Below, one piece after another: positions 10,749 to 40,031 of a stretch of DNA of 49,689 nucleotides. Position 1 is the stretch's first letter. Each line of letters starts with the position of its first letter. The stretch is taken from NCBI GenBank assembly GCA_903830625.1, contig CAIKUK010000009.1:1-49689 (forward strand), written 5' to 3'. The position numbers were made by a program, and so were the translations under genes. Origin of the DNA: Candidatus Yanofskybacteria bacterium. Lineage in GTDB: Bacteria > Patescibacteriota > Minisyncoccia > 2-02-FULL-40-12 > GWA2-44-9. The notes under the pieces were generated by a model. That model saw only the letters and a list, made by a program, of their open reading frames with translations, did no database searches and was not told where the DNA came from.

Positions 10749-11324
10749 TTATCGCTTAAATAATTCCTCAGTCAGTTCAGTAACGCCGATTTTCTTTTCG
10801 GCGGAATATGGAATGACTTTATATTTACCAACTGTTTTTTGAATACTCTGCATCTGTTTGACGTATTCGGATTTTTTAATCTTATCCACTTTATTGGCCA
10901 CAATCAAGATATTTTTATTTCGTTCTTCCAGCCCGCGCAAGATTTCTTTGTCGTTGGCGGTCAGGCCGATTTCGGCGTCAATAATCAAAAGCACCAATTT
11001 CTGCTGATAATGCGAGTTGAACAGATACCAAAAAATTATCTTCTTGAGTTTGTCCCGTCCACCTTCATCGGCTTTAGCGTAACCATAGCCAGGCAAATCC
11101 ACGAGATAAAAAGATTTGTTGATTAAAAATAAATTGACTTCCTGGGTCCGTCCGGGAAACGAGCTGGTTCGGGCCAAATCTTTTTGCTTGGTCAGAGAAT
11201 TGATAATGCTGGACTTGCCCACATTGGAACGCCCAATCAGAGCGATATGGTCTTTGCCGTCATCCAGAGCTTCATCGTCTCCGATAACGCCCTTCACAAA
11301 TTTTGCCGATGTTATTGTTGGCAT
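10749..11324 (-). CDS. engB: Ribosome biogenesis GTPase YihA/YsxC
   Basis: GRSNVGKSS, PGRT, DLPGYGYA, NKVD; start MPTITSAKF. Confidence 0.95.
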   Translation of the reverse strand: MPTITSAKFVKGVIGDDEALDDGKDHIALIGRSNVGKSSIINSLTKQKDLARTSSFPGRTQEVNLFLINKSFYLVDLPGYGYAKADEGGRDKLKKIIFWYLFNSHYQQKLVLLIIDAEIGLTANDKEILRGLEERNKNILIVANKVDKIKKSEYVKQMQSIQKTVGKYKVIPYSAEKKIGVTELTEELFKR

Positions 11325-11460
11325 CCCGCACATAACAGCCATCAGTTGCTGTAACGCAGTACAATTTAACTTTGCTGATGCGTTTAGCTTCCAGAATGGT
11401 CTGTCTTGTTAATTATACTTATTCCCGCAACACGTACTGCATATGGCTGTTATGTGCGGG
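11325..11460. mobile_element. 136-bp MITE-like element, copy 1, abutting engB ATG
   Basis: 18-bp perfect TIR CCCGCACATAACAGCCAT/ATGGCTGTTATGTGCGGG; near-identical copy at 39814-39949. Confidence 0.85.
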
Positions 11461-11492
11461 AAAAAAGTGGGGGTCGCGTTGGCGCGACCCCC
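11461..11492 (-). terminator. Intrinsic terminator of upstream orphan gene
   Basis: Minus strand GGGGTCGCG-CCAA-CGCGACCCC followed by ACTTTTTT. Confidence 0.7.
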
Positions 11493-30853: not shown

Positions 30854-32740
30854 CTAATAGGATACGTCAACTTGGACCTTATCCTTATTATTTGGGATAG
30901 ACCTGACCCAAAATGGGGACAAATTAACATTGGCCGAAGTAATGCCGGAAATTGAGCCTAGATAAGCCCTCATATCGGCGTCATTCTTGCCCAATAGGTC
31001 GGTAATAATCTTTTGTTGGTCCACTTTGGAATAGCCGGGACCGGTCACATGAACCGTAAAGGATAGGCCGTTTTTGGCTTCATCCCAACGAGGATTGGTG
31101 TAGGTTATGGTTAATTTGTCCAGCAAAACGGTTTTACTTTTTTGAGTATCCACATATTGACTAATCAGAGTGTAAAGGTCGGATTCTTTAAAACCGATGG
31201 TTTTGAGTGAGCCAGCTAGATTAACCTTGAAAGTGCTGGCGGTCGCGTCGGCGGGACTGGTTGAGCTGGGACTGCCGATAACCACCTGACTGTCGTTTAT
31301 GATTTTCAAACCATTGATTTGGGTTTTAAGTTCATCTTGAATGTTAGCGGTAAGCAAAGTCGTCAAAGTTTGTTTGGCCGTATTTAAATCAGATTCCGTT
31401 ACCACGGTGGACTGACCGCTGGTGCCATTAAGGATGGGCGCGGTCGATTGGCCGTAAACTTTTTGATATTTTTCCGTATTCCCCTGTTCTTTAAAAGCCG
31501 GAATAGTAAACAAACCCACCGGGACGTTATATTCCGAACCGGCTTTATCGGCGATAACTTGAACATCCTTACTGCCTGGCACCAGTTTGCCGCTAACAGT
31601 TTTGCCGGCCGGTACCACAATCGAAGTCAAAGTGTGAAAAATATGGTGGTCGGCTGATTCGAAACGCGTGGTCGTTACCAGGGGCTGATCCGTTGTCAGT
31701 TCGTTATAAACCGTAATCGTGCCTCGGGCTTTTTGAGCGACATCCACATGACCCGTGGCGATAAAGTCCTGAGAAACGGTTTTTTGAATATTGAAGAGTT
31801 GGCCCGGTACCGCCATACCCGTTAAACTAACGGCCGAAGTATTATCCGAAGCGAACACGGTCAGACTGAAATCCAGCGGCTGGCTGGCTGGCTTAATTGT
31901 CACTTGGGCTTTCCCGGTCGTAATAAAAACAACCGTGCCCAAAATAATGACCGCCACACAAGCCATGGCAATCAGACCGATGCGATGGGAAGAACGCCTA
32001 GGACGGTCAAATCCGTTGGAAACAAGTTTTGGTTTAAAATTTGATAACGAACGTCTGGTTCGGCTAAACCAGCCCATCGCTTTCGGCGCCAAGTTTGTCT
32101 CCGTTGGAATAGCCCGAGAACCCCAGACACTTTTTATTTCCTGCAAGGCGCGATGTTCAAGAGGTTCATCAGAGAAGTCGCTTTGTCTGATTTCCACCGG
32201 AATAGTTTTTTCACGTCCGCCGTAAACTTTCACGTTGCGCTGGTTTTCAGTTCCAGGCACAAAGATGTCATCCAAGCGTCGGCCATTGGGAGAATCATCA
32301 TCTTCTAAATCATCGCTGGTTTCTTCTTTAACTTGTGCTGTTGATGTTGAAATTGAATCTTCACTCGTGGCTGGCTCGGAATAAAAGTCTTCGATCTGGT
32401 TGACCACGCTGATTGAGCCTGAATCGGCCGGGACCAGTCGAGACGAGCTTGTTTGCCGGCTAACAGATTTCTTGGGGGCCGACGAACGGGCCAGAAGAAC
32501 ATCAAATTTATATTTTTTAGCCAAATCGTTCAGTTCCGGACTGGAACAAAGAAAAGAAACCGATTTTCCGAGACTCTTAGATTCGTCTTTGAGAGAAGCA
32601 AAATGCTCTTCTCTCTTGAAAGCCCGGGCGCTTTTGGGCAGTACGAAAATCACTTCTTCGGCCGAGGTGGATTTGAAGAGGTCTAAAATCTCTTCAAACG
32701 AATCATCCTTGAGAACATTGATAATCTTTGTGGAAGACAC
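30854..32740 (-). CDS. Membrane-anchored protein with baseplate J-like extracellular region
   Basis: N-terminal cytoplasmic domain, TM, AQKARGTITVYN, VIADKAGSEYN, LSPFWV. Confidence 0.7.
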   Translation of the reverse strand: MSSTKIINVLKDDSFEEILDLFKSTSAEEVIFVLPKSARAFKREEHFASLKDESKSLGKSVSFLCSSPELNDLAKKYKFDVLLARSSAPKKSVSRQTSSSRLVPADSGSISVVNQIEDFYSEPATSEDSISTSTAQVKEETSDDLEDDDSPNGRRLDDIFVPGTENQRNVKVYGGREKTIPVEIRQSDFSDEPLEHRALQEIKSVWGSRAIPTETNLAPKAMGWFSRTRRSLSNFKPKLVSNGFDRPRRSSHRIGLIAMACVAVIILGTVVFITTGKAQVTIKPASQPLDFSLTVFASDNTSAVSLTGMAVPGQLFNIQKTVSQDFIATGHVDVAQKARGTITVYNELTTDQPLVTTTRFESADHHIFHTLTSIVVPAGKTVSGKLVPGSKDVQVIADKAGSEYNVPVGLFTIPAFKEQGNTEKYQKVYGQSTAPILNGTSGQSTVVTESDLNTAKQTLTTLLTANIQDELKTQINGLKIINDSQVVIGSPSSTSPADATASTFKVNLAGSLKTIGFKESDLYTLISQYVDTQKSKTVLLDKLTITYTNPRWDEAKNGLSFTVHVTGPGYSKVDQQKIITDLLGKNDADMRAYLGSISGITSANVNLSPFWVRSIPNNKDKVQVDVSY

Positions 32741-33057
32741 CGGGTAGTAGAACTTCGAGTTGCCGCAACAAGATTATGGCTTGAAGAGGTAATCGCGAAG
32801 CCTTCGTTTTAATAATCGTGAACCTTGATTTGTTTTTAAATACCTTTCTCTACGCTTAGCGTCATTTGCATGAAGACAGGCTTCGCAGTAAACAATACTC
32901 CATGATTCGCCATTTTTAGTAGACTTGTTGCGGCCTTGATTATGTTCCAACAATCGCCTCTTCAGATTTTCTGTATATCCTATGTATAATTCCTTATTTT
33001 TATTTTCTAGCACGTAGACGTAATGGAACATAACCCTCTCGAAGTTTCACTACCCGG
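32740..33057. mobile_element. 318-bp TIR element carrying a GIY-YIG nuclease, inserted in a start codon
   Basis: TIR CCGGGTAGTAGAACTTCGAG/CTCGAAGTTTCACTACCCGG (18/20); ACA duplicated at 32737-39 and 33058-60. Confidence 0.8.
32774..33031 (-). CDS. GIY-YIG nuclease (UPF0213/SLX1-like)
   Basis: YVYVL...LYIGYT.NLKRRL.EHN.G, YCEA, A.RRERYLK. Confidence 0.92.
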   Translation of the reverse strand: MFHYVYVLENKNKELYIGYTENLKRRLLEHNQGRNKSTKNGESWSIVYCEACLHANDAKRRERYLKTNQGSRLLKRRLRDYLFKP

Positions 33058-33243: not shown

Positions 33244-33525
33244 ATGCCGAAAGAACGTTGTGATATTGTCAGGCACGGACACCGGAAATACAACATCCGG
33301 CAGACGAGACCAGCGAACCACAGAGTTGATCAACCTGCTCCTTCCCTCGGTAAAGTCATTTTAGTCAGGGACGCGAGGGACATGACCATCCGATTCAAGA
33401 TCCAGTTCGACAAAACGTGCACCGTCGCCGATGATCCAGCCTGGCAGACAAGGGCCACAGAGGCGGTACTTCGAGAAATCGGATTCAGGTTCAAGGACTT
33501 CAAGCCGGTTTCGTGGAGACCCTAG
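33244..33525 (+). CDS. Hypothetical protein
   Basis: SD GGGAG, 93-aa ORF convergent with dus. Confidence 0.45.
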   Translation: MPKERCDIVRHGHRKYNIRQTRPANHRVDQPAPSLGKVILVRDARDMTIRFKIQFDKTCTVADDPAWQTRATEAVLREIGFRFKDFKPVSWRP

Positions 33526-34561
33526 ACGCCAGAGACTCAAGTTTTTCGAGAGTCTCTGGCGCTGTTTTTATTTTCATTAACTTGTTACGAATTTCTTTAG
33601 CACCTTCAAAATCATTGATATATATCTTTATGAACCTTTTCATAACATCAAAGTTTTTGCCCGCACCCCAAAGCTCCACAAAGTTTTGAATATGTTTTTT
33701 GAGTAAGTTTATACGTTCTTCTCGTGTATGTACTTCAGATGGATTAACCCCCACACTCAGTTGGTTGCTGGCTTTGCCATCTGAAGATTCAATCAACTGA
33801 GTGTGGGGGTGAAAAAACCAAGGATTTTGAAATATCCCCCGGCCGACCATAATGCCGTCCAAATCATATTGCTTAGCTTTTTCTATGCCTTCAGTGTAAC
33901 TCATCACATCCCCATTACCGACAACAATAATGCCGGCTGCGTGGCAAAGTCGCGCGGCTTTGCCAATCTCATCCCAATGAGCGGGCGCTTTTGATGCTTC
34001 TTTCATTGTCCGGCCGTGAACAATAATGGCATCCGGTTTGGCTTCAATGATTTTTGATACCCATTCTTCGGTAACAATTGTGTTGTAGCCGATACGGGTT
34101 TTTATTGAAACCGGCAAATTGCCTGCTCCACGTTTGGTTTCAATGATTATTTGTTGAGCTAATTCGGGATTATTAATTAAAGCGGCCCCGGAATTCTGTT
34201 TTAGAATTTTTCTTTCGGGACAACCCATATTGATATCGATACCATCAAAACCTAATTCCGCAATAAGTTTGGCGCATTCATAAAAATGTTCGGGCACGCT
34301 TCCGAATATTTGCGCCACAATCGGCCGTTCGTTTTCTTTAAATGATAAATGAGGCAATAGTTTAGCTTTGCCCGCCATAGCTTTAGCGTCGGCGGGGCCA
34401 GCTTTCATTACATAATTCAAACCATCCGCCGACACAAATTCAGTATACAAAACATCTGGCTTGCCACAATCGCAAACGATCTGCCTAAACGCCATATCGG
34501 TCACATCCGACATCGGCGCCAGGACGAAGAAGGGTTTTTTAAGTTGTTTCCAGAAATTCAT
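33500..34561 (-). CDS. dusB: tRNA-dihydrouridine synthase (with two palindromic inserts)
   Basis: LAPMSDVTD, TEFVS, DINMGCP, SIKTRIG, VHGRT, GNGDV, MVGRG. Confidence 0.9.
   Translation of the reverse strand: MNFWKQLKKPFFVLAPMSDVTDMAFRQIVCDCGKPDVLYTEFVSADGLNYVMKAGPADAKAMAGKAKLLPHLSFKENERPIVAQIFGSVPEHFYECAKLIAELGFDGIDINMGCPERKILKQNSGAALINNPELAQQIIIETKRGAGNLPVSIKTRIGYNTIVTEEWVSKIIEAKPDAIIVHGRTMKEASKAPAHWDEIGKAARLCHAAGIIVVGNGDVMSYTEGIEKAKQYDLDGIMVGRGIFQNPWFFHPHTQLIESSDGKASNQLSVGVNPSEVHTREERINLLKKHIQNFVELWGAGKNFDVMKRFIKIYINDFEGAKEIRNKLMKIKTAPETLEKLESLASRVSTKPA
33747..33810. repeat. 64-bp in-frame palindromic element in dus
   Basis: 17-bp perfect IR ACCCCCACACTCAGTTG/CAACTGAGTGTGGGGGT; encodes HPHTQL...LSVGV. 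Confidence 0.85.
34371..34396. repeat. REP-like hairpin in-frame in dus
   Basis: CCCGCCATAGCTTTAGCGTCGGCGGG; encodes PADAKAMAG. Confidence 0.65.
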
Positions 34562-34576
34562 ATTTATAATTATAAC

Positions 34577-34614
34577 AAAAAGAAAAGGAGCGGCAGCCAG
34601 AAGGCGTACCGCTC
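34577..34614 (-). terminator. Intrinsic terminator of the ncRNA
   Basis: GAGCGG...CCGCTC hairpin followed by CTTTTCTTTTT on minus strand. Confidence 0.7.
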
Positions 34615-34909
34615 AGTATCGAAGGTGTCTGTGCAAGCTCATTTCCTTATCGGGGCCTGCCGGAGGGAATCTCTCCCTTCCGTGTTTAGGCTTATCGGTT
34701 GTTGGAACAACCGATAGTTTCCCTTGGTTTCAGCCGGTGCCCCGACATCCATCCAAGGTACTTAGGTGCCTAGCTGCTCGACCGAAGGCCGAGTCCGCTT
34801 GGTCCTACAACCCCAGCCCGAAAGCTGGTTTAGCCTCTTCCCTCATACGTGGGGCTCCATCCCACTTCCGGGGAATCGCCATTGCTTTCTTCACCAGACA
34901 ACCTCGACG
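34577..34909 (-). ncRNA. Stand-alone structured RNA resembling 23S rRNA domain I core
   Basis: Own promoter and terminator, 5'/3' closing helix, ordered motifs AGAAAGCAA.GCGATTCCC, GGGAAGAG..AAACC, GGGGTTGTAGGAC, CCTAAGTAC, TGAAA, CTAAACAC. Confidence 0.75.
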
Positions 34910-34915
34910 AGAAGT

Positions 34916-34943
34916 ATAGTACCAGACGCAATGTCTATGTCAA
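34916..34943 (-). promoter_or_regulatory. Sigma70 promoter of the ncRNA
   Basis: TTGACA-N16-TACTAT with TGn extended -10. Confidence 0.7.
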
Positions 34944-34947
34944 ATGG

Positions 34948-36783
34948 TTATTCAACTGTGGCTCGGATACGGCGGTTGCCTCCGGAGACGGATTCTTCTT
35001 TAGTGATAGTGATATGGCCGATCTCGCCGGTATGGGTCACATGGGGACCGGCGCAAATCTCGCGGGAGAACCAATTATTATCTTCGCCGACCGTATAGAC
35101 TTTGACTCTCGGCGGATACTTAGCCTTAAAGATACCCGCGGCGCCGGAATCCAAAGCTTCCTGTAAATCCACTTCTTTAAATGTCACCGGCAAATCTTTT
35201 TTCACGATTTCGTTAGCCATATCCTCGGCCTGTTTCAATTCTTCGGGAGTAATTTTTCTGGGAAAATTAAAATCAAATCTCAACCGCTCTACCGTAATAT
35301 CAGCTCCGGCTTGAGCCAATTCCTGGCCTAAGACTTTCCGCAGGGCCGCATCCAGAAGATGAGTCGCCGTATGCAAACGAGTTTTCTTTTTCATTTCTTC
35401 TCTTCTCTCAACTGATAAGTCGGCTTCTTTTACCCCCACACCAAACGAACGATTGCCTTCGGCGCTCCCGACTTCGTTTGTTATGGTGTGGGGGTGAATG
35501 CCATGCCCGCCGAATTTCTTTTCCACGCCGGCGCGAGAAATATTTTTATGAATTTCCATTTCTTTATTAAATCCTTCCTCATCAAATTCATATAGATGAT
35601 TCTCTGCTATTTCTTTAATAACTTCTGGTGGGAATCCATAACTTTGATATAAATCAAAGGCATCCTTGCCTGAAATTTTTTGCCCCACTACAAATGGCTT
35701 TACACTTTGTCCTGGCACCAGTTCTTGAGCCTTGAGGCCAGGATATTTTTTATAGAATTCCTCAAGTCCTTTATCAAGTGTCAGGAGAAACTTAGTAACT
35801 TCTTTGGTAAATTCATTAATTATTGACTGTTGGTTATCTATTAATTCAGAATGACTCTTCCCGTATTCGATAATAATTTTTTGCATGAAATCGGCTATAA
35901 CACTGGTTGGTATTTGGATATTTTTCGAATGGACAAGAAGGCGTCTTATTAATTTTCTTAGTATATAACCCCTCTCCTTATTTGATGGTTGTACCCCATC
36001 AGCAATTAAAAAAACGGAAGCCCTTAGATGGTCGGCTATTATTCTGCCACTTTTTAATTCATCGGGCGCTCCTGCAAATAAAGCAAACGAGAAAACATTA
36101 CTAAACAGGTCAGTTTCAAAAATATTGCTTTTATTCTGAACAACCATCGCCAAGCGTTCCAGGCCCATGCCGGTATCAATGCCTTTTATGGCCAGTGGTT
36201 TCAGTTGTTTGTCGGCGCTTTGATAGTACTCATTAAAAACGATATTCCAAACCTCAAGGTCGTTTACATAAATTTCAGTCGTCGGACCACAAGGACCTTC
36301 CTCCCCGGTCGGTCCCCAAAAATTATCCTCTCGGCCAGCTCTTTTTATTTTCAATGCCGGATCAATCGATTGCCATATCTTTTCCGATTCTTCATCCGCT
36401 GGCACTCCTTCTTCGCCTTGAAAAACCGAAACGTAATCAATGGTCAGACCCATTTCTTTGGTAATGAATTCGTGGGCATATTCAATGGCTTCCTTTTTCC
36501 AATAATCTCCGAACGAGAAATTACCGAGCATTTCAAAGAAAGTCAGGTGTGAATCATCTCCCACCTCGTCAATATCCGAAGTGCGCAAACATTTTTGAAT
36601 AGAAACGACATTTTTGTCCGGCGCTTCGGCCGGGTTTATATAATATGGCTTGAATTGTTGCATGCCGGCCGTTGTAAACAAAACCGACGGGTCGGTCGGC
36701 AACAACGACGAAGACGGCACCACGGCGTGCCCTTTTGATTCAAAAAATTTAATAAACCTCTCCCGTATTTCCTTCTGAGTCAT
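34948..36783 (-). CDS. alaS: Alanine--tRNA ligase (short form, no C-Ala domain)
   Basis: FTTAGMQQFK, HLTFFEMLGNFSFGDY, GPCGP, DTGMGLER, HTATHL, CAGPH. Confidence 0.97.
   Translation of the reverse strand: MTQKEIRERFIKFFESKGHAVVPSSSLLPTDPSVLFTTAGMQQFKPYYINPAEAPDKNVVSIQKCLRTSDIDEVGDDSHLTFFEMLGNFSFGDYWKKEAIEYAHEFITKEMGLTIDYVSVFQGEEGVPADEESEKIWQSIDPALKIKRAGREDNFWGPTGEEGPCGPTTEIYVNDLEVWNIVFNEYYQSADKQLKPLAIKGIDTGMGLERLAMVVQNKSNIFETDLFSNVFSFALFAGAPDELKSGRIIADHLRASVFLIADGVQPSNKERGYILRKLIRRLLVHSKNIQIPTSVIADFMQKIIIEYGKSHSELIDNQQSIINEFTKEVTKFLLTLDKGLEEFYKKYPGLKAQELVPGQSVKPFVVGQKISGKDAFDLYQSYGFPPEVIKEIAENHLYEFDEEGFNKEMEIHKNISRAGVEKKFGGHGIHPHTITNEVGSAEGNRSFGVGVKEADLSVERREEMKKKTRLHTATHLLDAALRKVLGQELAQAGADITVERLRFDFNFPRKITPEELKQAEDMANEIVKKDLPVTFKEVDLQEALDSGAAGIFKAKYPPRVKVYTVGEDNNWFSREICAGPHVTHTGEIGHITITKEESVSGGNRRIRATVE
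35432..35495. repeat. 64-bp in-frame palindromic element in alaS
   Basis: 12-bp perfect IR ACCCCCACACCA/TGGTGTGGGGGT; encodes HPHTIT...FGVGV; same ends and length as the dus element. Confidence 0.85.
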
Positions 36784-36822: not shown

Positions 36823-39813
36823 CTAGCTCATCGTCCGACGCAACGCGCAGTATTCACAATCCTTATCGTCGCAGAAACGGTTCCAGAATTTGAGATTTAA
36901 GATTTCATCGGCCGTTTCTTTAATGACCTCGGTCAATTCTTCCACTTCTTCAGGCAAAATGATAAACGATTCTTTTTTATATTTTCCTTTTTCGTCAGGC
37001 TCAATGAAATCAATATCGCCCGAAACCATGATGTATTTACGGCCATCTTCATATTTATTCAGAAGTAAATTATAGAACATCAGCTGGCGTTTAATATCGC
37101 CGTTGGAACTCTTGGTTGAACCTTCTATCTCGCCTCGGGTTTTCGGTTTTGAAGTTTTGTAATCCACCACATTCACTTCTTTGCCAGAGCCGAGCATTTC
37201 TATCTTATCTATTTTGCCGGTAATCCTAATATCCCCGACGCTTCGGTCGGGGCGGGCCGGCGCAAGCATAATTCCTCGGAGTTCCAATTCAGTTATCGTT
37301 TTTGTCCGCCAAGAGCCGTGATAATTATCGAAGTAGCCAGCCAAGGTTTTATTTCCTTTTTCCAGCAGTTCGTCATATTCTTTTTTACTTAATGGCTGGC
37401 GTTTTAAATAAGTCTCAAATCTAGACAAAAGAAACTTTTTATCCGCTTTGCCGGTTCGATAAGAATCAAAGAAATCTTTGAGCGTGTAATGCACGGCCGT
37501 GCCGTACATCTGATGCTTGGTTTTCGCCTGCGGAATACGGAGCAGATTGGTATAAAAATATTTCCACGGACAATCCAGATAATTATTCAGAGCGGTGACG
37601 GAAAGGCCGTTACGTTTGAACAGGTCGCCGATAAAAGCTTTACTTTTCAGATCAATACCTTTTTGGATCCGCGGAGCAAAAATTATCTCTTTCTTTTTGG
37701 CAAAATTCTTTTCAATCAACTCGGTGTCTTTGGTGGCAATCAGTTCGGGTTTTATTTCCGTGATGAATTGGCAAGGCAACTGGTCTTGCCCGCTTAAACT
37801 TTCTTTGGCATAAGAAATAGACGCGCCTTTCTTGGCTCTGGTCAGGGCCACGTAGAATAACCGCCGTTCATCATCTTCTGTCGCGCCTTTGTCCAGAATC
37901 CGGCCAGTCAGCGAAAATACCCTCGCCGGTAAGACTAAATGGTTCGGCCGGCGTTTATTGCCCCAATGGCCGTCATAAGCGTTGATAATATAGACGTATT
38001 CAAATTCCTGGCCTTTGGAACGATGTGCGGTCATGAGCCGGATTTGCCCTGCGGATGAGCTGATGCTTTTCTTTAATAATAGATTGTGGGTTTTGAGCGT
38101 AGCCAGATATTGCAGGAATTCCGGCAAGCCGTTCGTCGGATGGACTTCCACCAAATTTTTAATTTCATCAAACAAGCCGTTTAATTTATCCAGCTTCTCC
38201 ATGGTCTGGCCCTTCATGATGTATTTCAAAAATCCCGATTCGGTAATTATCTTTTCAAAAAGTTCCGGCAAAGAAATATTATGCGCCAGCGTGGCCCAGC
38301 CGGCCAGAATTTTATAAAAATTCAAAAAGGCTTCCGGATTTTCCACACCCGCTTTTTTAAGCCGGGTTTTTGATTTTATTATTTCATAAGCCGAAATCTT
38401 TTCTTTATGCGCGGATTCTATAATTTTAAACACGTCCAGCATTTCAAATCCTAAAAAATCAATATTCAGCGCTTCAAGCAGTTTCTGTTCGGAACCGAAA
38501 GTCTGCACTGTTTCCAGAATAAGCAAAACTTTTCTGATATCATAATCCGATAACAAGTCCTGGTCGGATTCAATGGCGAACGGCAGACCGGCTTTTTCAA
38601 ACATGGCCGCCACCGGCGCGGCATCGCGATTATCACGATACAAAACGGCAATTTCTTGAGGTTCAGTGCCGGCTTTTATTTTACTTTTAATATCTTCGGC
38701 TAGGAAAAAATATTCCGCCTCCGGTTTTGAGAATTCATACACGCCTATTTTTTCTTTAGGATGCACCACGTTGGCGCTTAAGGGCTTCTCGCCGGCCAGC
38801 AAGCTATGGGCCGCATCCAGGATTGGCTGGGTAGAACGATAATTCTCTTCCAGAACAATCAGTTTAGCCGACGGATACAATTTTTTAAAATATAAGAAAT
38901 TTTCCAGCGAAGCGCCTTGGAAACGGAAGATGGCTTGCTTCTCATCGCCAACCACAAAGATATTCGGATTGTCGTGATAATTGGCCAGCAGTTCCAGAAT
39001 TTTGTTTTGGGCGTTATTGGTATCTTGATGTTCGTCCACCAAAAAATACTGATACTGTTCTTGAATCTGGAGCAAAAGATTTTCATTCGCGGAAAGTTCG
39101 CGCAGCGTTTCCATAATCATGTCGCTGTAATCATAAAGCTTGGCGGACATCAGTTTGACTTGATACCATTCGTAAATTTTAGCCAGTTCGGCATTTTTGG
39201 CGATTTGTTTTTGCAGTTTTTGATAGTCGCCTTTCATTTTGCCCTTGTGAGCTCCTTTTTCATGATACAAATCATCAATCGCTTCAAAGCTTTTTAATTC
39301 AGCCGTAATAATCTTATGAAACTGCTCGGGCGAAACGCCTTCGCGTTTTAAATCATTCAAACACGCCAAAATCGGGCGGACATAAAACATCGGGTCGCCA
39401 AACGGTCTTAATTCTTTGAGCGGCAAAGTGCCAATCGCCTCCTCTATTAAATTAACCTGATCTACTTCGGTGATATTGTTCGCGCCGATAATGCGTGGAA
39501 ATTCTCCAGGATTGGATTTGATGATTTCGTTACAGAATCCATGAAAAGTATTGATGGCCACCGAATAAGCCGGCGTACCGATCATCTCAGCCAGCCGGCT
39601 GCGCATGGAAGCCACGCCCGATTCGGTAAAGGTCAGCGCTAAAATATTGCCCGGATTGATTTGAGTTTTTTGAAGAATGTTGGCGATGCGCAGAGTTAAG
39701 ATTTGGGTCTTGCCCGTGCCTGGCCCAGCCACCACCATAACCGGCCCTTCGATAGCATCGACGGCCTCGCGCTGGGCCTTATTGAGTTGTTTATAGGCTT
39801 CCTTGAATTCCAT
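36823..39813 (-). CDS. UvrD/PcrA-like SF1A helicase with C-terminal PD-(D/E)XK nuclease and Cys cluster
   Basis: AGPGTGKT, VDEHQD, VGDEKQAIFRF, NYRS, TAHRSKGQEF, YVALTRA, GKIDK..VDYKT, CDDKDCEYC. Confidence 0.92.
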   Translation of the reverse strand: MEFKEAYKQLNKAQREAVDAIEGPVMVVAGPGTGKTQILTLRIANILQKTQINPGNILALTFTESGVASMRSRLAEMIGTPAYSVAINTFHGFCNEIIKSNPGEFPRIIGANNITEVDQVNLIEEAIGTLPLKELRPFGDPMFYVRPILACLNDLKREGVSPEQFHKIITAELKSFEAIDDLYHEKGAHKGKMKGDYQKLQKQIAKNAELAKIYEWYQVKLMSAKLYDYSDMIMETLRELSANENLLLQIQEQYQYFLVDEHQDTNNAQNKILELLANYHDNPNIFVVGDEKQAIFRFQGASLENFLYFKKLYPSAKLIVLEENYRSTQPILDAAHSLLAGEKPLSANVVHPKEKIGVYEFSKPEAEYFFLAEDIKSKIKAGTEPQEIAVLYRDNRDAAPVAAMFEKAGLPFAIESDQDLLSDYDIRKVLLILETVQTFGSEQKLLEALNIDFLGFEMLDVFKIIESAHKEKISAYEIIKSKTRLKKAGVENPEAFLNFYKILAGWATLAHNISLPELFEKIITESGFLKYIMKGQTMEKLDKLNGLFDEIKNLVEVHPTNGLPEFLQYLATLKTHNLLLKKSISSSAGQIRLMTAHRSKGQEFEYVYIINAYDGHWGNKRRPNHLVLPARVFSLTGRILDKGATEDDERRLFYVALTRAKKGASISYAKESLSGQDQLPCQFITEIKPELIATKDTELIEKNFAKKKEIIFAPRIQKGIDLKSKAFIGDLFKRNGLSVTALNNYLDCPWKYFYTNLLRIPQAKTKHQMYGTAVHYTLKDFFDSYRTGKADKKFLLSRFETYLKRQPLSKKEYDELLEKGNKTLAGYFDNYHGSWRTKTITELELRGIMLAPARPDRSVGDIRITGKIDKIEMLGSGKEVNVVDYKTSKPKTRGEIEGSTKSSNGDIKRQLMFYNLLLNKYEDGRKYIMVSGDIDFIEPDEKGKYKKESFIILPEEVEELTEVIKETADEILNLKFWNRFCDDKDCEYCALRRTMS
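37233..37252. repeat. REP-like hairpin in-frame in the helicase-nuclease gene
   Basis: CCCCGAC-GCTTCG-GTCGGGG; same arms as 45739-45758. Confidence 0.65.
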
Positions 39814-39949
39814 CCCGCACATAACAGCCATCAGTTGCTGTAACGCAGTACAATTCAACTTTGTTGATGCGTTCAGCTTCTAGAATGGTCTGCTTTGTTA
39901 ATGACTTTTCGTCCCGCAACATGTACTGCCTATGGCTGTTATGTGCGGG
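39814..39949. mobile_element. 136-bp MITE-like element, copy 2, with 7-bp target duplication containing the start codon
   Basis: Same 18-bp TIR as copy 1; ATTCCAT at 39807-39813 and 39950-39956. Confidence 0.88.
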
Positions 39950-40031
39950 ATTCCATGTTCAGAGTATATCATTTTTATAAATTGACAGGATGGTTTTATA
40001 TTCATACAATCTCCCGAGGAGGGTGGGTAGT

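Follow-up and report, generated by a model that had tools for sequence, protein, structure and literature searches.

Palindromic insertions in alaS and dus of a Candidatus Yanofskybacteria bacterium and a small GIY-YIG cassette with the same ends

The palindromic inserts of dus and alaS

Two genes for tRNA-related enzymes in an ultra-small Candidatus Yanofskybacteria bacterium each carry a 64-bp palindrome inside the reading frame, which raises the question of what these segments are and how they reached their places. The window, that is, the whole stretch of DNA analysed (49,689 nucleotides, contig CAIKUK010000009.1 of assembly GCA_903830625.1), holds the two genes and their elements as follows.

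33500..34561, minus strand: dus, tRNA dihydrouridine synthase, 353 aa (ORF; Pfam PF01207, E 2.9e-58)
33747..33810: 64-bp miniature element in dus, core 33748-33809 (62 nt), by pattern match and fold
34948..36783, minus strand: alaS, alanyl-tRNA synthetase, 611 aa (Pfam PF01411 and PF07973)
35432..35495: 64-bp miniature element in alaS, core 35433-35494 (62 nt), by pattern match and fold

The two elements have the same termini (ACCCCCACAC and GTGTGGGGGT) and differing interiors; 10 nt of the arms are identical between the copies, and at least 17 bp are paired within each of them. With up to one mismatch allowed, the element 10-mer occurs six times in the window versus 1.36 times expected, and six matches were reached in none of 100 shuffles. 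In the mRNA sense the two copies fold into hairpins of -36.9 and -35.9 kcal/mol (z -6.8 and -5.7), and on the plus strand into hairpins of -41.5 and -41.3 kcal/mol (z -7.2 and -8.1). Translated from the minus strand, the dus element encodes HPHTQLIESSDGKASNQLSVGV (Dus residues 251-272) and the alaS element encodes HPHTITNEVGSAEGNRSFGVGV (AlaRS residues 430-451), both of the form HPHT-x14-(S/G)VGV, stop-free and with the frame kept. The initial annotation, which had described in-frame 64-bp palindromes in both genes, is thus borne out in coordinates, ends, differing interiors and common peptide. Its insert length stands for the element itself, which is 64 bp, but the net insertion by comparison with orthologues is 66 nt (22 codons).

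The AlaRS insert (the protein has a single match in its own genome, G000) is flanked by KKFGGHGI and KE..TRLHTATH and lies immediately before the editing-domain helix, a placement proposed earlier that both the orthologue alignment and the AlphaFold model confirm. In the AlphaFold predictions, made from alignments of 9-10 sequences only and with mean pLDDT of 70 and 76, the AlaRS insert 430-451 falls within a segment of pLDDT <50 (414-457) that sits between helix 402-420 and helix 458-485, the latter bearing the HTATH motif of the editing domain, and the Dus insert 251-272 is modelled with low confidence as a beta-hairpin located between barrel and C-terminal helices. According to these models, both inserts occupy inter-domain linkers of low predicted confidence, where such a loop may be tolerated.

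The reading as insertions presupposes that orthologues do not contain the same segment independently of the DNA palindrome. The insert segment is absent from 9/9 AlaRS and 9/9 Dus orthologues examined, and the reading survives this comparison. Moreover, in a related metagenome contig from a different study (~89% identity) the alaS site is exactly 66 nt shorter; the joint 35448>35480 from the metagenome comparison probably derives from another copy with the same arms. No Rfam family was found at either element when the whole window was searched at the gathering threshold, and the spacer between dus and alaS gave no Rfam match at E up to 1. The dus-alaS spacer of another genome (G005) has no homology to that of the window.

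A GIY-YIG cassette with the same arms

The two copies noticed first are both present, and further copies of 64, 30, 135 and 296 bp lie on other contigs of the genome (598 kb). The third 64-bp copy is located on the start codon of dnaE. The four 30-bp palindromes, at four places in the genome, are loop-less and perfect (ACCCCCACACTCATG/CATGAGTGTGGGGGT). The 296-bp copy (G000:C24:46796-47091) has the same 13-nt ends as the miniatures, and its arms enclose exactly one ORF of 84 aa encoding a GIY-YIG protein, with the ATG right behind the 5' arm and the TAA right ahead of the 3' arm; the full cassette is thus a unit of ~295 bp with terminal inverted repeats ACCCCCACACYCA.... The interior of the single 135-bp copy matches the nuclease ORF at 23/28 positions in the same orientation, a score equalled in 1/500 shuffles. 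Full-length, 135-bp, 64-bp and 30-bp copies of one genome have their arms in common.

The cassette ORF matches Pfam GIY-YIG PF01541 (E 1e-16) over residues 1-71 of 84. The motif tyrosines Y5 and Y16 are invariant in 6 cassette proteins, likewise R26, E29, H30, N31, E50, R61, E62 and N64. The closest solved structure is 1zg2 (UPF0213 protein, E 3.5e-5), and the NCBIfam matches, to group I intron endonuclease and UvrC models, were all below threshold. Small GIY-YIG genes are bracketed by inverted repeats at 24/30 loci within the order and at 68/78 loci among GTDB species. To our knowledge, GIY-YIG enzymes are not known as transposases.

Two further arm lineages occur in the same genome, one comprising a cassette and six ~140-bp copies and the other a cassette and two ~125-bp copies. 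Members of other lineages are also found in the window.

32740..33057, minus strand: second GIY-YIG cassette of another arm lineage, arms CCGGGTAGTAGAACTTCGAG / CTCGAAGTTTCACTACCCGG, 85-aa ORF at 32774-33031
11323..11462: 140-bp miniature of a third arm lineage (ATCCCGCACATAA...), without an ORF
39812..39951: another ATCCCGCACATAA-lineage miniature of 140 bp, located where the 1011-aa ORF 36823-39858 has its 5' end

The second cassette adjoins dus directly downstream and has the same architecture as the 296-bp cassette. The gene-carrying form of the ATCCCGCACATAA lineage is located at G000:C15:39990-40282. The last two bases of the element at 39812..39951 supply the A and T of a boundary-spanning in-frame ATG (M-E-F-K...).

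Flanking repeats, reading phase and distribution

What recurs between direct repeats is the 62-nt core CCCCC...GGGGG, and 4-bp direct repeats adjoin this type of core family-wide. Perfect repeats were found at 17/45 copies versus ~2 expected (0/2000 shuffles), which was replicated on full cassettes with 16/48 versus 2.5 expected (0/2000 shuffles). The 30-bp palindromes are flanked in the same manner, for example by TTGA, CTCA, TTAA or TTTA, so that elements of every size look like the same type of insertion. Apparently, the 62-nt core moves together with a 4-bp flank, as a unit of 66 nt. At the window copies the flanks are imperfect: TTAA (33744-33747) and TGAA (33810-33813) in dus agree at 3/4 positions, and TTTA (35429-35432) and TGAA (35495-35498) in alaS at 2/4. 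Many imperfect flanks have the palindromic form TTNA-core-TNAA, with TGAA recurrent at one end, and this is unexplained by a simple duplication model. In dus, a 66-nt unit of core plus TGAA, without duplication, fits the empty site derived from orthologues with zero mismatches; dnaE begins with ATGAAR... in relatives, and its filled alleles read ATGAA-core-TGAA. A single target rule was given up, as some copies disagree with a 4-bp duplication and some with a carried-over TGAA.

With 4 bp added to the 62-nt core, the total of 66 nt preserves the frame. The core length is 2 mod 3 in 15/16 copies located in ORFs of 150 aa or more, whereas the non-coding copies spread over the three classes as 6/7/8, with 6/21 in the frame-keeping class. 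Furthermore, the phase xPHT is used by 12/16 gene-internal copies, although stop-free readings are similarly frequent in the three phases (42, 40 and 36 of 74). The phase used encodes a stop-free, mostly polar 22-residue peptide, the ends of which (HPHT and VGV) are dictated by the DNA arms. We interpret the bias of gene-internal copies in length and phase as the outcome of a selection filter. This bears on the idea that the inserts are lost in the course of expression, by intron-like excision or translational bypassing, and are absent from the protein. We consider it very improbable: the one point in its favour is a strong hairpin at the insert, but both inserts are stop-free and frame-keeping, the preference for the frame-keeping class would be needless if the segment were removed, and no Rfam family is present at these sites of the window.

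In relatives, copies were found in a D-Ala-D-Ala-ligase-like ATP-grasp protein of one genus and a glycosyltransferase-like protein of another (both named by eye); the two copies differ at 2/71 nt, and the alignment of the two proteins is confined to the insert. Near-identical copies therefore reside in unrelated genes of different genomes, and empty sites are found in orthologues. The order includes 6 genomes with a CCCCACAC-armed cassette, and miniatures are present in 5/6 of these versus 18/99 other genomes, counts that are not phylogenetically independent; in those 18 genomes no cassette with matching arms was detected. The copy number of the 20-80-nt class is low (1-3 per genome), and identical 28-bp palindromes exist in genomes of several families. 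The census relied on pattern scans and scripts, so that diverged copies are under-counted. In a MAFFT alignment of the elements, gaps fell within the 5' arm and the stems were out of register, and for three copies of equal length the register disagreement came from a 1-nt bulge.

Considering this distribution, the palindrome itself might be the primary unit, with the GIY-YIG gene as a cargo or homing gene that landed in its centre and the 64-bp copies not derived from the cassette but spread by another activity such as host replication or repair or some other enzyme. The loop-less 30-bp palindromes at four places, the identical 28-bp palindromes in several families, the exact fit of the ORF between the arms and the 18 genomes with miniatures and no detected matching cassette are consistent with such an origin. 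However, the 30-bp palindromes have 4-bp direct repeats like those of cassettes and miniatures, a remnant of the ORF is retained in the 135-bp copy, in each of three independent arm lineages a cassette is accompanied by miniatures of its own, and no Y1 (IS200/IS605-type) transposase or TnpB was found in the genome. We therefore regard this order of events as unlikely.

Stems are kept across copies while the interiors differ, and certain intergenic copies recur in the same setting, upstream of homologous genes in three genomes and between rnpA-yidD and dnaA in two, or directly 3' of stop codons in a terminator-like manner. Since these positions seem conserved, such copies may have been inherited vertically or may have a function. 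An interpretation of GTGTGGGGG as a DnaA box, considered by eye because two copies adjoin dnaA, was dropped, the resemblance being weak and partial. Together with the high stability of the hairpins (z -5.7 to -8.1), the preserved stems and recurrent positions could suggest that the host has recruited them, as an RNase III or attenuation site, a protein-binding site or a useful peptide loop, and that selection keeps them in alaS and dus. But the segment is missing in 18/18 orthologues examined and in the ~89%-identical relative, the host genes are unrelated, the direct-repeat flanks and the nuclease-bearing full-length form indicate insertion, and the HPHT and VGV ends of the peptide are set by the DNA arms, which makes a host function improbable in our opinion. 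The miniatures are best seen as selfish DNA under a selection filter rather than as functional parts of the host.

Comparison with known elements and possible origin

The proposed resemblance to Rickettsia palindromic elements (RPEs) holds for the behaviour: the elements are palindromic, in-frame and located in unrelated conserved proteins (dus, alaS and dnaE, with two more in relatives). As portrayed in the sections of PMC10969869 on RPEs, these are likewise in-frame palindromic repeats in unrelated conserved protein genes that add a fold-compatible peptide; they are ~150 bp long and form ten families, and no partner enzyme is named there. The elements here differ in being 59-71 nt long, in having few copies, in belonging to another phylum and in sharing their arms with a nuclease cassette, and the likeness, drawn by analogy, is one of behaviour. 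Bacterial MITEs, as outlined in the same source, have in common with our elements the terminal inverted repeats, the lack of an ORF, flanking direct repeats and the existence of a longer partner that has the same ends. Here, the direct repeats are seen across the family, with only 3/4 and 2/4 agreement at the two window copies; evidence of mobility was also found, and the partner's enzyme would mobilise the miniatures. The partner encodes no DDE, serine, tyrosine or HUH transposase, and the ~295-bp unit has an 84-aa GIY-YIG protein only.

The closest published system is that of Ssn and its NTS repeats (Chenal et al. 2025, Nat Commun, PMC11893778). The main text of that paper describes a single-domain GIY-YIG protein of ~85-95 aa, the gene of which lies between inverted hairpin-forming repeats that are found elsewhere in the genome too, and its authors state that NTS-ssnA-NTS resembles an insertion sequence; here, a protein of 84 aa, inverted arms of ~20 bp and solo copies elsewhere are similar. 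The differences are that the arms found here (CCCCCACAC...) show no match to the NTS motif given in the main text (PMC11893778), and that a single arm is not a self-folding hairpin, the two arms pairing across the gene, unlike the Ssn/SRM repeats. SRM hairpin repeats (NTS-like motif CGTCATTCCCGCG...) were not found flanking the gene, where the arms read ACCCCCACACYCA.... Other arm lineages (ATCCCG..., some CGTC-tagged) look nearer to the NTS-like motif by eye. Only 2% of NTS are said to lie inside genes, and the main text describes no target duplications, variable-loop miniatures or in-frame insertions and does not mention Patescibacteria (PMC11893778). In the literature searched, which comprised main texts outside subscription journals, we found no description of bacterial GIY-YIG cassettes that combine inverted repeats with target duplications, nor of in-frame palindromic elements in Patescibacteria.

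REP-RAYT and IS200/IS605 elements, and REPs with a CGTC tag, are also comparable, having hairpin repeats and a small nuclease between inverted copies that is thought to act on single-stranded DNA. As far as we know, REP/IS200-type insertion produces no target duplication. In contrast, 4-bp repeats are enriched here, and the Y1_Tnp (PF01797) and TnpB (PF07282) domains were matched nowhere in the 598-kb genome (rated completeness 100%), while the control searches gave matches in 6 and 8 of 14 genomes. An explanation of the IS200/IS605 type was rejected because neither Y1 transposase nor TnpB was found.

Taken as a whole, we think it likely that the 64-bp palindromes are non-autonomous, gene-less, MITE-like miniatures of the ~295-bp GIY-YIG cassette. 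The nuclease of the cassette may be related to the Ssn enzymes, which are hairpin-specific and act on ssDNA; it would recognise the folded arms and mobilise the miniatures in trans, with 4 bp duplicated upon integration. Insertion of a full cassette, with its stop codon, would cut AlaRS short, so that the copy in alaS must have been a miniature when it arrived, and in alaS and dus the frame-keeping, stop-free loop would be tolerated in linkers. Going further, and only tentatively, for the evidence leaves us more doubtful than convinced, we propose that the ~295-bp cassette represents a new minimal class of autonomous transposon, whose sole 84-aa GIY-YIG protein would recognise the element's own folded arms, much as hairpins in single-stranded DNA are recognised by Ssn enzymes, and would drive insertion with a 4-bp duplication, and whose miniatures would have evolved a translatable phase (xPHT...VGV, core 2 mod 3), so that they could colonise essential genes (alaS, dnaE) and start codons in the gene-dense genomes of Patescibacteria and move between genera.

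If the link between nuclease and miniatures is true, a nuclease of 84 residues and its two 20-bp arms would form about the smallest self-contained bacterial mobile unit known, and the Ssn-type nucleases, biochemically characterised and biologically unexplained, would obtain a concrete role in moving hairpin elements. Pairs of arms and nuclease are also candidates for programmable tools acting on ssDNA. In Patescibacteria, gene calls and protein alignments are inflated and distorted by such inserts. Under the same premise, selfish DNA would survive in genomes of ~0.6 Mb that are nearly free of intergenic DNA by being translatable and landing in linkers and start codons, and essential proteins would be remodelled by it, for example AlaRS and the N-terminus of DnaE.

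Elements within dus and alaS

Two palindromic elements are located inside adjacent genes of the window:

33747-33810, 64 bp: miniature in dus, inside the minus-strand ORF 33500-34561
35432-35495, 64 bp: miniature in alaS, inside the minus-strand ORF 34948-36783

The initial annotation had described two 64-bp copies with common ends, differing interiors and in-frame reading, which was confirmed at both positions: the copies share the ends ACCCCCACAC and GTGTGGGGGT, their interiors are unlike, and the dus and alaS elements encode in frame the peptides HPHTQLIESSDGKASNQLSVGV and HPHTITNEVGSAEGNRSFGVGV. The ORFs were identified as Dus (Pfam PF01207, E 2.9e-58) and AlaRS (Pfam PF01411 and PF07973), and a protein search of the source genome (G000) gave only one match for alaS. 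The exact 10-mer arm occurs four times on the two strands of the window, always in these two elements; with at most one mismatch there are six matches against 1.36 expected, a number reached in 0 of 100 shuffles. Moreover, a long hairpin is predicted for each copy, both in the mRNA sense (-36.9 and -35.9 kcal/mol; z -6.8 and -5.7) and on the plus strand (-41.5 and -41.3 kcal/mol; z -7.2 and -8.1).

AlaRS was aligned with that of nine relatives, five from its own genus and the others from its family or order, and 22 residues are absent from all nine; the closest one (69% identity) reads KKFGGHGI-KEGDL, compared with KKFGGHGI-(22 residues)-KEADL in the window. The segment in Dus is also missing from 9/9 orthologues, so the segments stand as insertions, as first proposed. 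In the DNA, alaS and dus have each gained 66 nt net. In addition, another study's metagenome contig, with about 89% identity across 437 nt, runs from position 35400 to 35498 through 31 other nucleotides, so that its alaS site is shorter by exactly 66 nt. The 64-bp in-frame elements in alaS and dus are real, and judging from the open frames they would be translated into protein. In the AlphaFold models, built on alignments of only 9-10 sequences (mean pLDDT 70 and 76), the AlaRS insert (430-451) lies within a segment of pLDDT below 50 (414-457) and is flanked by helix 402-420 and helix 458-485; the latter bears the HTATH editing-domain motif, and the model thus agrees with the earlier placement of the insert ahead of the editing domain. 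The Dus insert (251-272) is predicted as a low-confidence beta-hairpin leading from the barrel end to the C-terminal helical domain. In the Dus of genome G002, this loop holds additional residues that are fewer and unrelated. Separately, the Dus of G004 (locus L031) has a different 22-residue insert ahead of the GFDGIDIN motif, and the match to the AlaRS of G002 is split in three, residue 188 being followed by about 75 additional nt; both segments are possible further in-frame elements.

The 386-bp spacer between alaS and dus (34562-34947, minus strand) is predicted to form a multi-branched fold on the gene strand (-145 kcal/mol, z -4.1), ending in a hairpin and U-run about 15 nt ahead of the dus start codon. 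Even with E relaxed to 1, Rfam gave no match in the spacer; tRNA and tmRNA are absent from it, and the RNase P RNA sits elsewhere (G000:C24:10357-10777). Indels of an approximately 90%-identical relative in sequencing run X3 are clustered at 34841-34868 of the spacer, a 42-nt spacer core recurs in G007 between its dus and alaS matches, and only 16-19 nt separate these matches in G003 and G004. We regard the spacer as a candidate small RNA or leader, not assigned to any family. Furthermore, the contig opens with a perfect 58-bp palindrome (positions 1-58), and contig C21 begins with a comparable fold-back (G000:C21:1-50); contig-end assembly artefacts probably account for both.

Gene-carrying cassettes and miniatures

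A scan of the source genome for CCCCCACAC-N20-70-GTGTGGGGG found nothing beyond the two window copies, and listing all half-sites gave the further ones:

G000:C23:40941-41004: third 64-bp copy, with one arm mismatch
G000 contigs C3, C17, C21 and C10: four 30-bp near-perfect palindromes, ACCCCCACACTCATG-CATGAGTGTGGGGGT
G000:C24:46622-46756: 135-bp copy
G000:C24:46796-47091: 296-bp copy, gene-carrying

The arms of the 296-bp copy, ACCCCCACACTCACAAGGTTT and AAACCTTGTGAGTGTGGGGGT, exactly enclose a single ORF of 84 aa, whose ATG directly follows the 5' arm and whose TAA lies just ahead of the 3' arm. Its product matches the GIY-YIG family (PF01541, E 1e-16, 61.4 bits), and among solved structures it is closest to the UPF0213 protein 1zg2 (E 3.5e-5). 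The interior of the 135-bp copy contains a 23/28 match to this ORF in the same orientation (local score 29, against 18.4 +/- 2.5 for shuffles, 1/500 of which scored as high).

Other arm lineages are also present. The source genome has eight small GIY-YIG genes. Around five of them, inverted repeats of roughly 20 bp closely enclose the gene; these units span 286-318 bp, and each has different arms. The ATCCCGCACATAA lineage comprises one cassette and six ORF-less copies of about 140 bp, and the ATCCCGTTAGAG lineage one cassette and two ORF-less copies of about 125 bp. In the window are:

32740-33057: bracketed GIY-YIG cassette with an 85-aa gene and 20-bp inverted repeats, directly downstream of dus
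11323-11462 and 39812-39951: 140-bp miniatures of the ATCCCGCACATAA lineage

GIY-YIG matches adjoin dus matches in G001, G002 and G009 as well. The miniature at 39812-39951 sits at the 5' end of a 1011-aa ORF, where an in-frame ATG (M-E-F-K...) spans the boundary, its A and T being the last two bases of the element; ATGGA is present on the opposite side too.

Nuclease relatives were found in 94/105 genomes of the order, at up to 14 places per genome, and 24 of the 30 best loci have bracketing inverted repeats (score at least 12; spans 271-326 bp). Among GTDB species genomes, 68 of the 78 evaluable loci from the best 80 of 283 relatives are bracketed likewise, and the record titles name many Patescibacteria lineages and some Omnitrophota, Planctomycetota and Syntrophales-type genomes. 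Identity among six cassette proteins whose arms are of the CCCCCACAC type is 60-70%, and invariant in them are the GIY-YIG tyrosines Y5 and Y16 together with R26, E29, H30, N31, E50, R61, E62 and N64. The cassette-plus-miniature pattern is general.

Hairpins with CCCCACAC arms and a 20-80-nt interior occur in 1-3 copies in 23/105 genomes of the order (reversed-pattern control: one genome) and in 17/400 other genomes of a phylum sample (control: none). Full-length cassettes with exact arms are found in five genomes of the order, to which the nuclease-locus survey added that of G070; a sixth pattern match, in G085, looks by eye like chance. Miniatures are also present in 5/6 cassette-bearing genomes versus 18/99 of the remainder, and the hypergeometric p of about 0.002 (hand arithmetic) overstates the support because the genomes are related. 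The 28-bp palindrome CCCCCACACCAAAATTTTGGTGTGGGGG is unchanged across different families of the phylum (L114, L115, L120), with 29-bp variants at L116 and L118. Among loci L052 (G059:C4), L039 (G063) and L043 (G067), one copy ends by eye at the start of a tRNA-like sequence (GTGTGGGG/GCGTAGCTCAG), and two lie between rnpA-yidD and dnaA, a likely origin region.

Mobility, insertion sites and survival inside genes

Two copies of one element, differing at 2 of 71 nt, occur in two different proteins of two genera, an ATP-grasp D-Ala-D-Ala-ligase-like and a glycosyltransferase-like protein (named by eye), which align over the insert only. The third 64-bp copy lies immediately 3' of the dnaE ATG, in frame (M-NPPTHTSENSQSPDSRLMSVGV-NFIHLH), and a copy at this start codon is found in two genera, in G000 and G070 (L044). 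The dnaE of relatives begins ATGAAR TTY, compared with ATGAA-core-TGAA in the filled alleles, and TGAA is therefore duplicated. The element end makes G-GTG-AA downstream, a GTG start that could restore the original N-terminus. In G003, instead of the start-codon copy, there is a short CCCCCACAC palindrome some 45 nt 5' of the dnaE start.

With the core defined as CCCCC...GGGGG, the flanks of 45 distinct copies, ranging in size from 28 to 316 bp, were compared: perfect 4-bp direct repeats abut the core in 17, and at least three positions match in 25; flank shuffling gave 1.96 perfect cases expected, and 0/2000 shuffles reached 17. Among 48 full cassettes from the GTDB scan, 16 are perfect against 2.5 expected (0/2000 shuffles as many), and the zero scores of 4-C arms look like register artefacts. 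The window copies have imperfect flanks, TTAA-core-TGAA in dus and TTTA-core-TGAA in alaS. Since the orthologue-derived empty sites of both genes have TTAA, target duplication requires that dus changed once and alaS twice afterwards; if the core and TGAA entered together as a 66-nt unit without duplication, dus needs no change and alaS one. Many imperfect flanks have the palindromic form TTNA-core-TNAA, and TGAA recurs at one end; simple duplication would not account for these features. Under either model, the 64-bp palindrome keeps the frame because 62 + 4 = 66.

Reading frames were compared for 37 distinct miniatures whose ends are exact and whose flanks are long enough; in 16 of them, an ORF of 150 aa or more runs through the element. 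Core length is 2 mod 3 in 15 of these 16; non-coding copies are distributed 6/7/8 across the three length classes. The phase xPHT...VG(V/A) is used by 12/16 gene-internal copies. Over all copies the three phases are about equally stop-free (42, 40 and 36 of 74 readings), so stop codons alone do not account for the phase bias, which is likely caused by peptide tolerance or lineage effects.

Relation to known systems and putative mobilisation

IS200/IS605 and REP-RAYT are excluded for G000, because neither a Y1 transposase nor TnpB was found in it. Going by the available text, the published system that comes nearest is that of the Ssn proteins, a family with a single GIY-YIG domain and about 94 aa (cd10448) whose members bind and cut single-stranded DNA adjoining NTS/SRM hairpins; these hairpins flank the ssn genes, an architecture that the authors call identical to insertion sequences (PMC11893778). 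The arms described here do not match the NTS motif quoted there, the available account holds no target duplications, miniatures or in-frame insertions, and a term search of its main text gave no mention of Patescibacteria. Closest in behaviour are the Rickettsia palindromic elements (RPEs) of about 150 bp, which as here are in-frame palindromic inserts in conserved genes, and for which the available account names no partner enzyme (PMC10969869); the RPE analogy drawn at the outset therefore holds as a description of behaviour. Our literature searches found no description of bacterial cassettes that combine a GIY-YIG gene, inverted repeats and target duplications.

We consider it fairly probable that the window inserts are miniature, non-autonomous derivatives of the GIY-YIG hairpin cassette. 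We infer mobilisation by the cassette nuclease, as well as the exact integration chemistry of the element. A full cassette, ending in a stop codon, would truncate the single-copy AlaRS, so the alaS copy must have arrived as a miniature, which would argue for mobilisation in trans.
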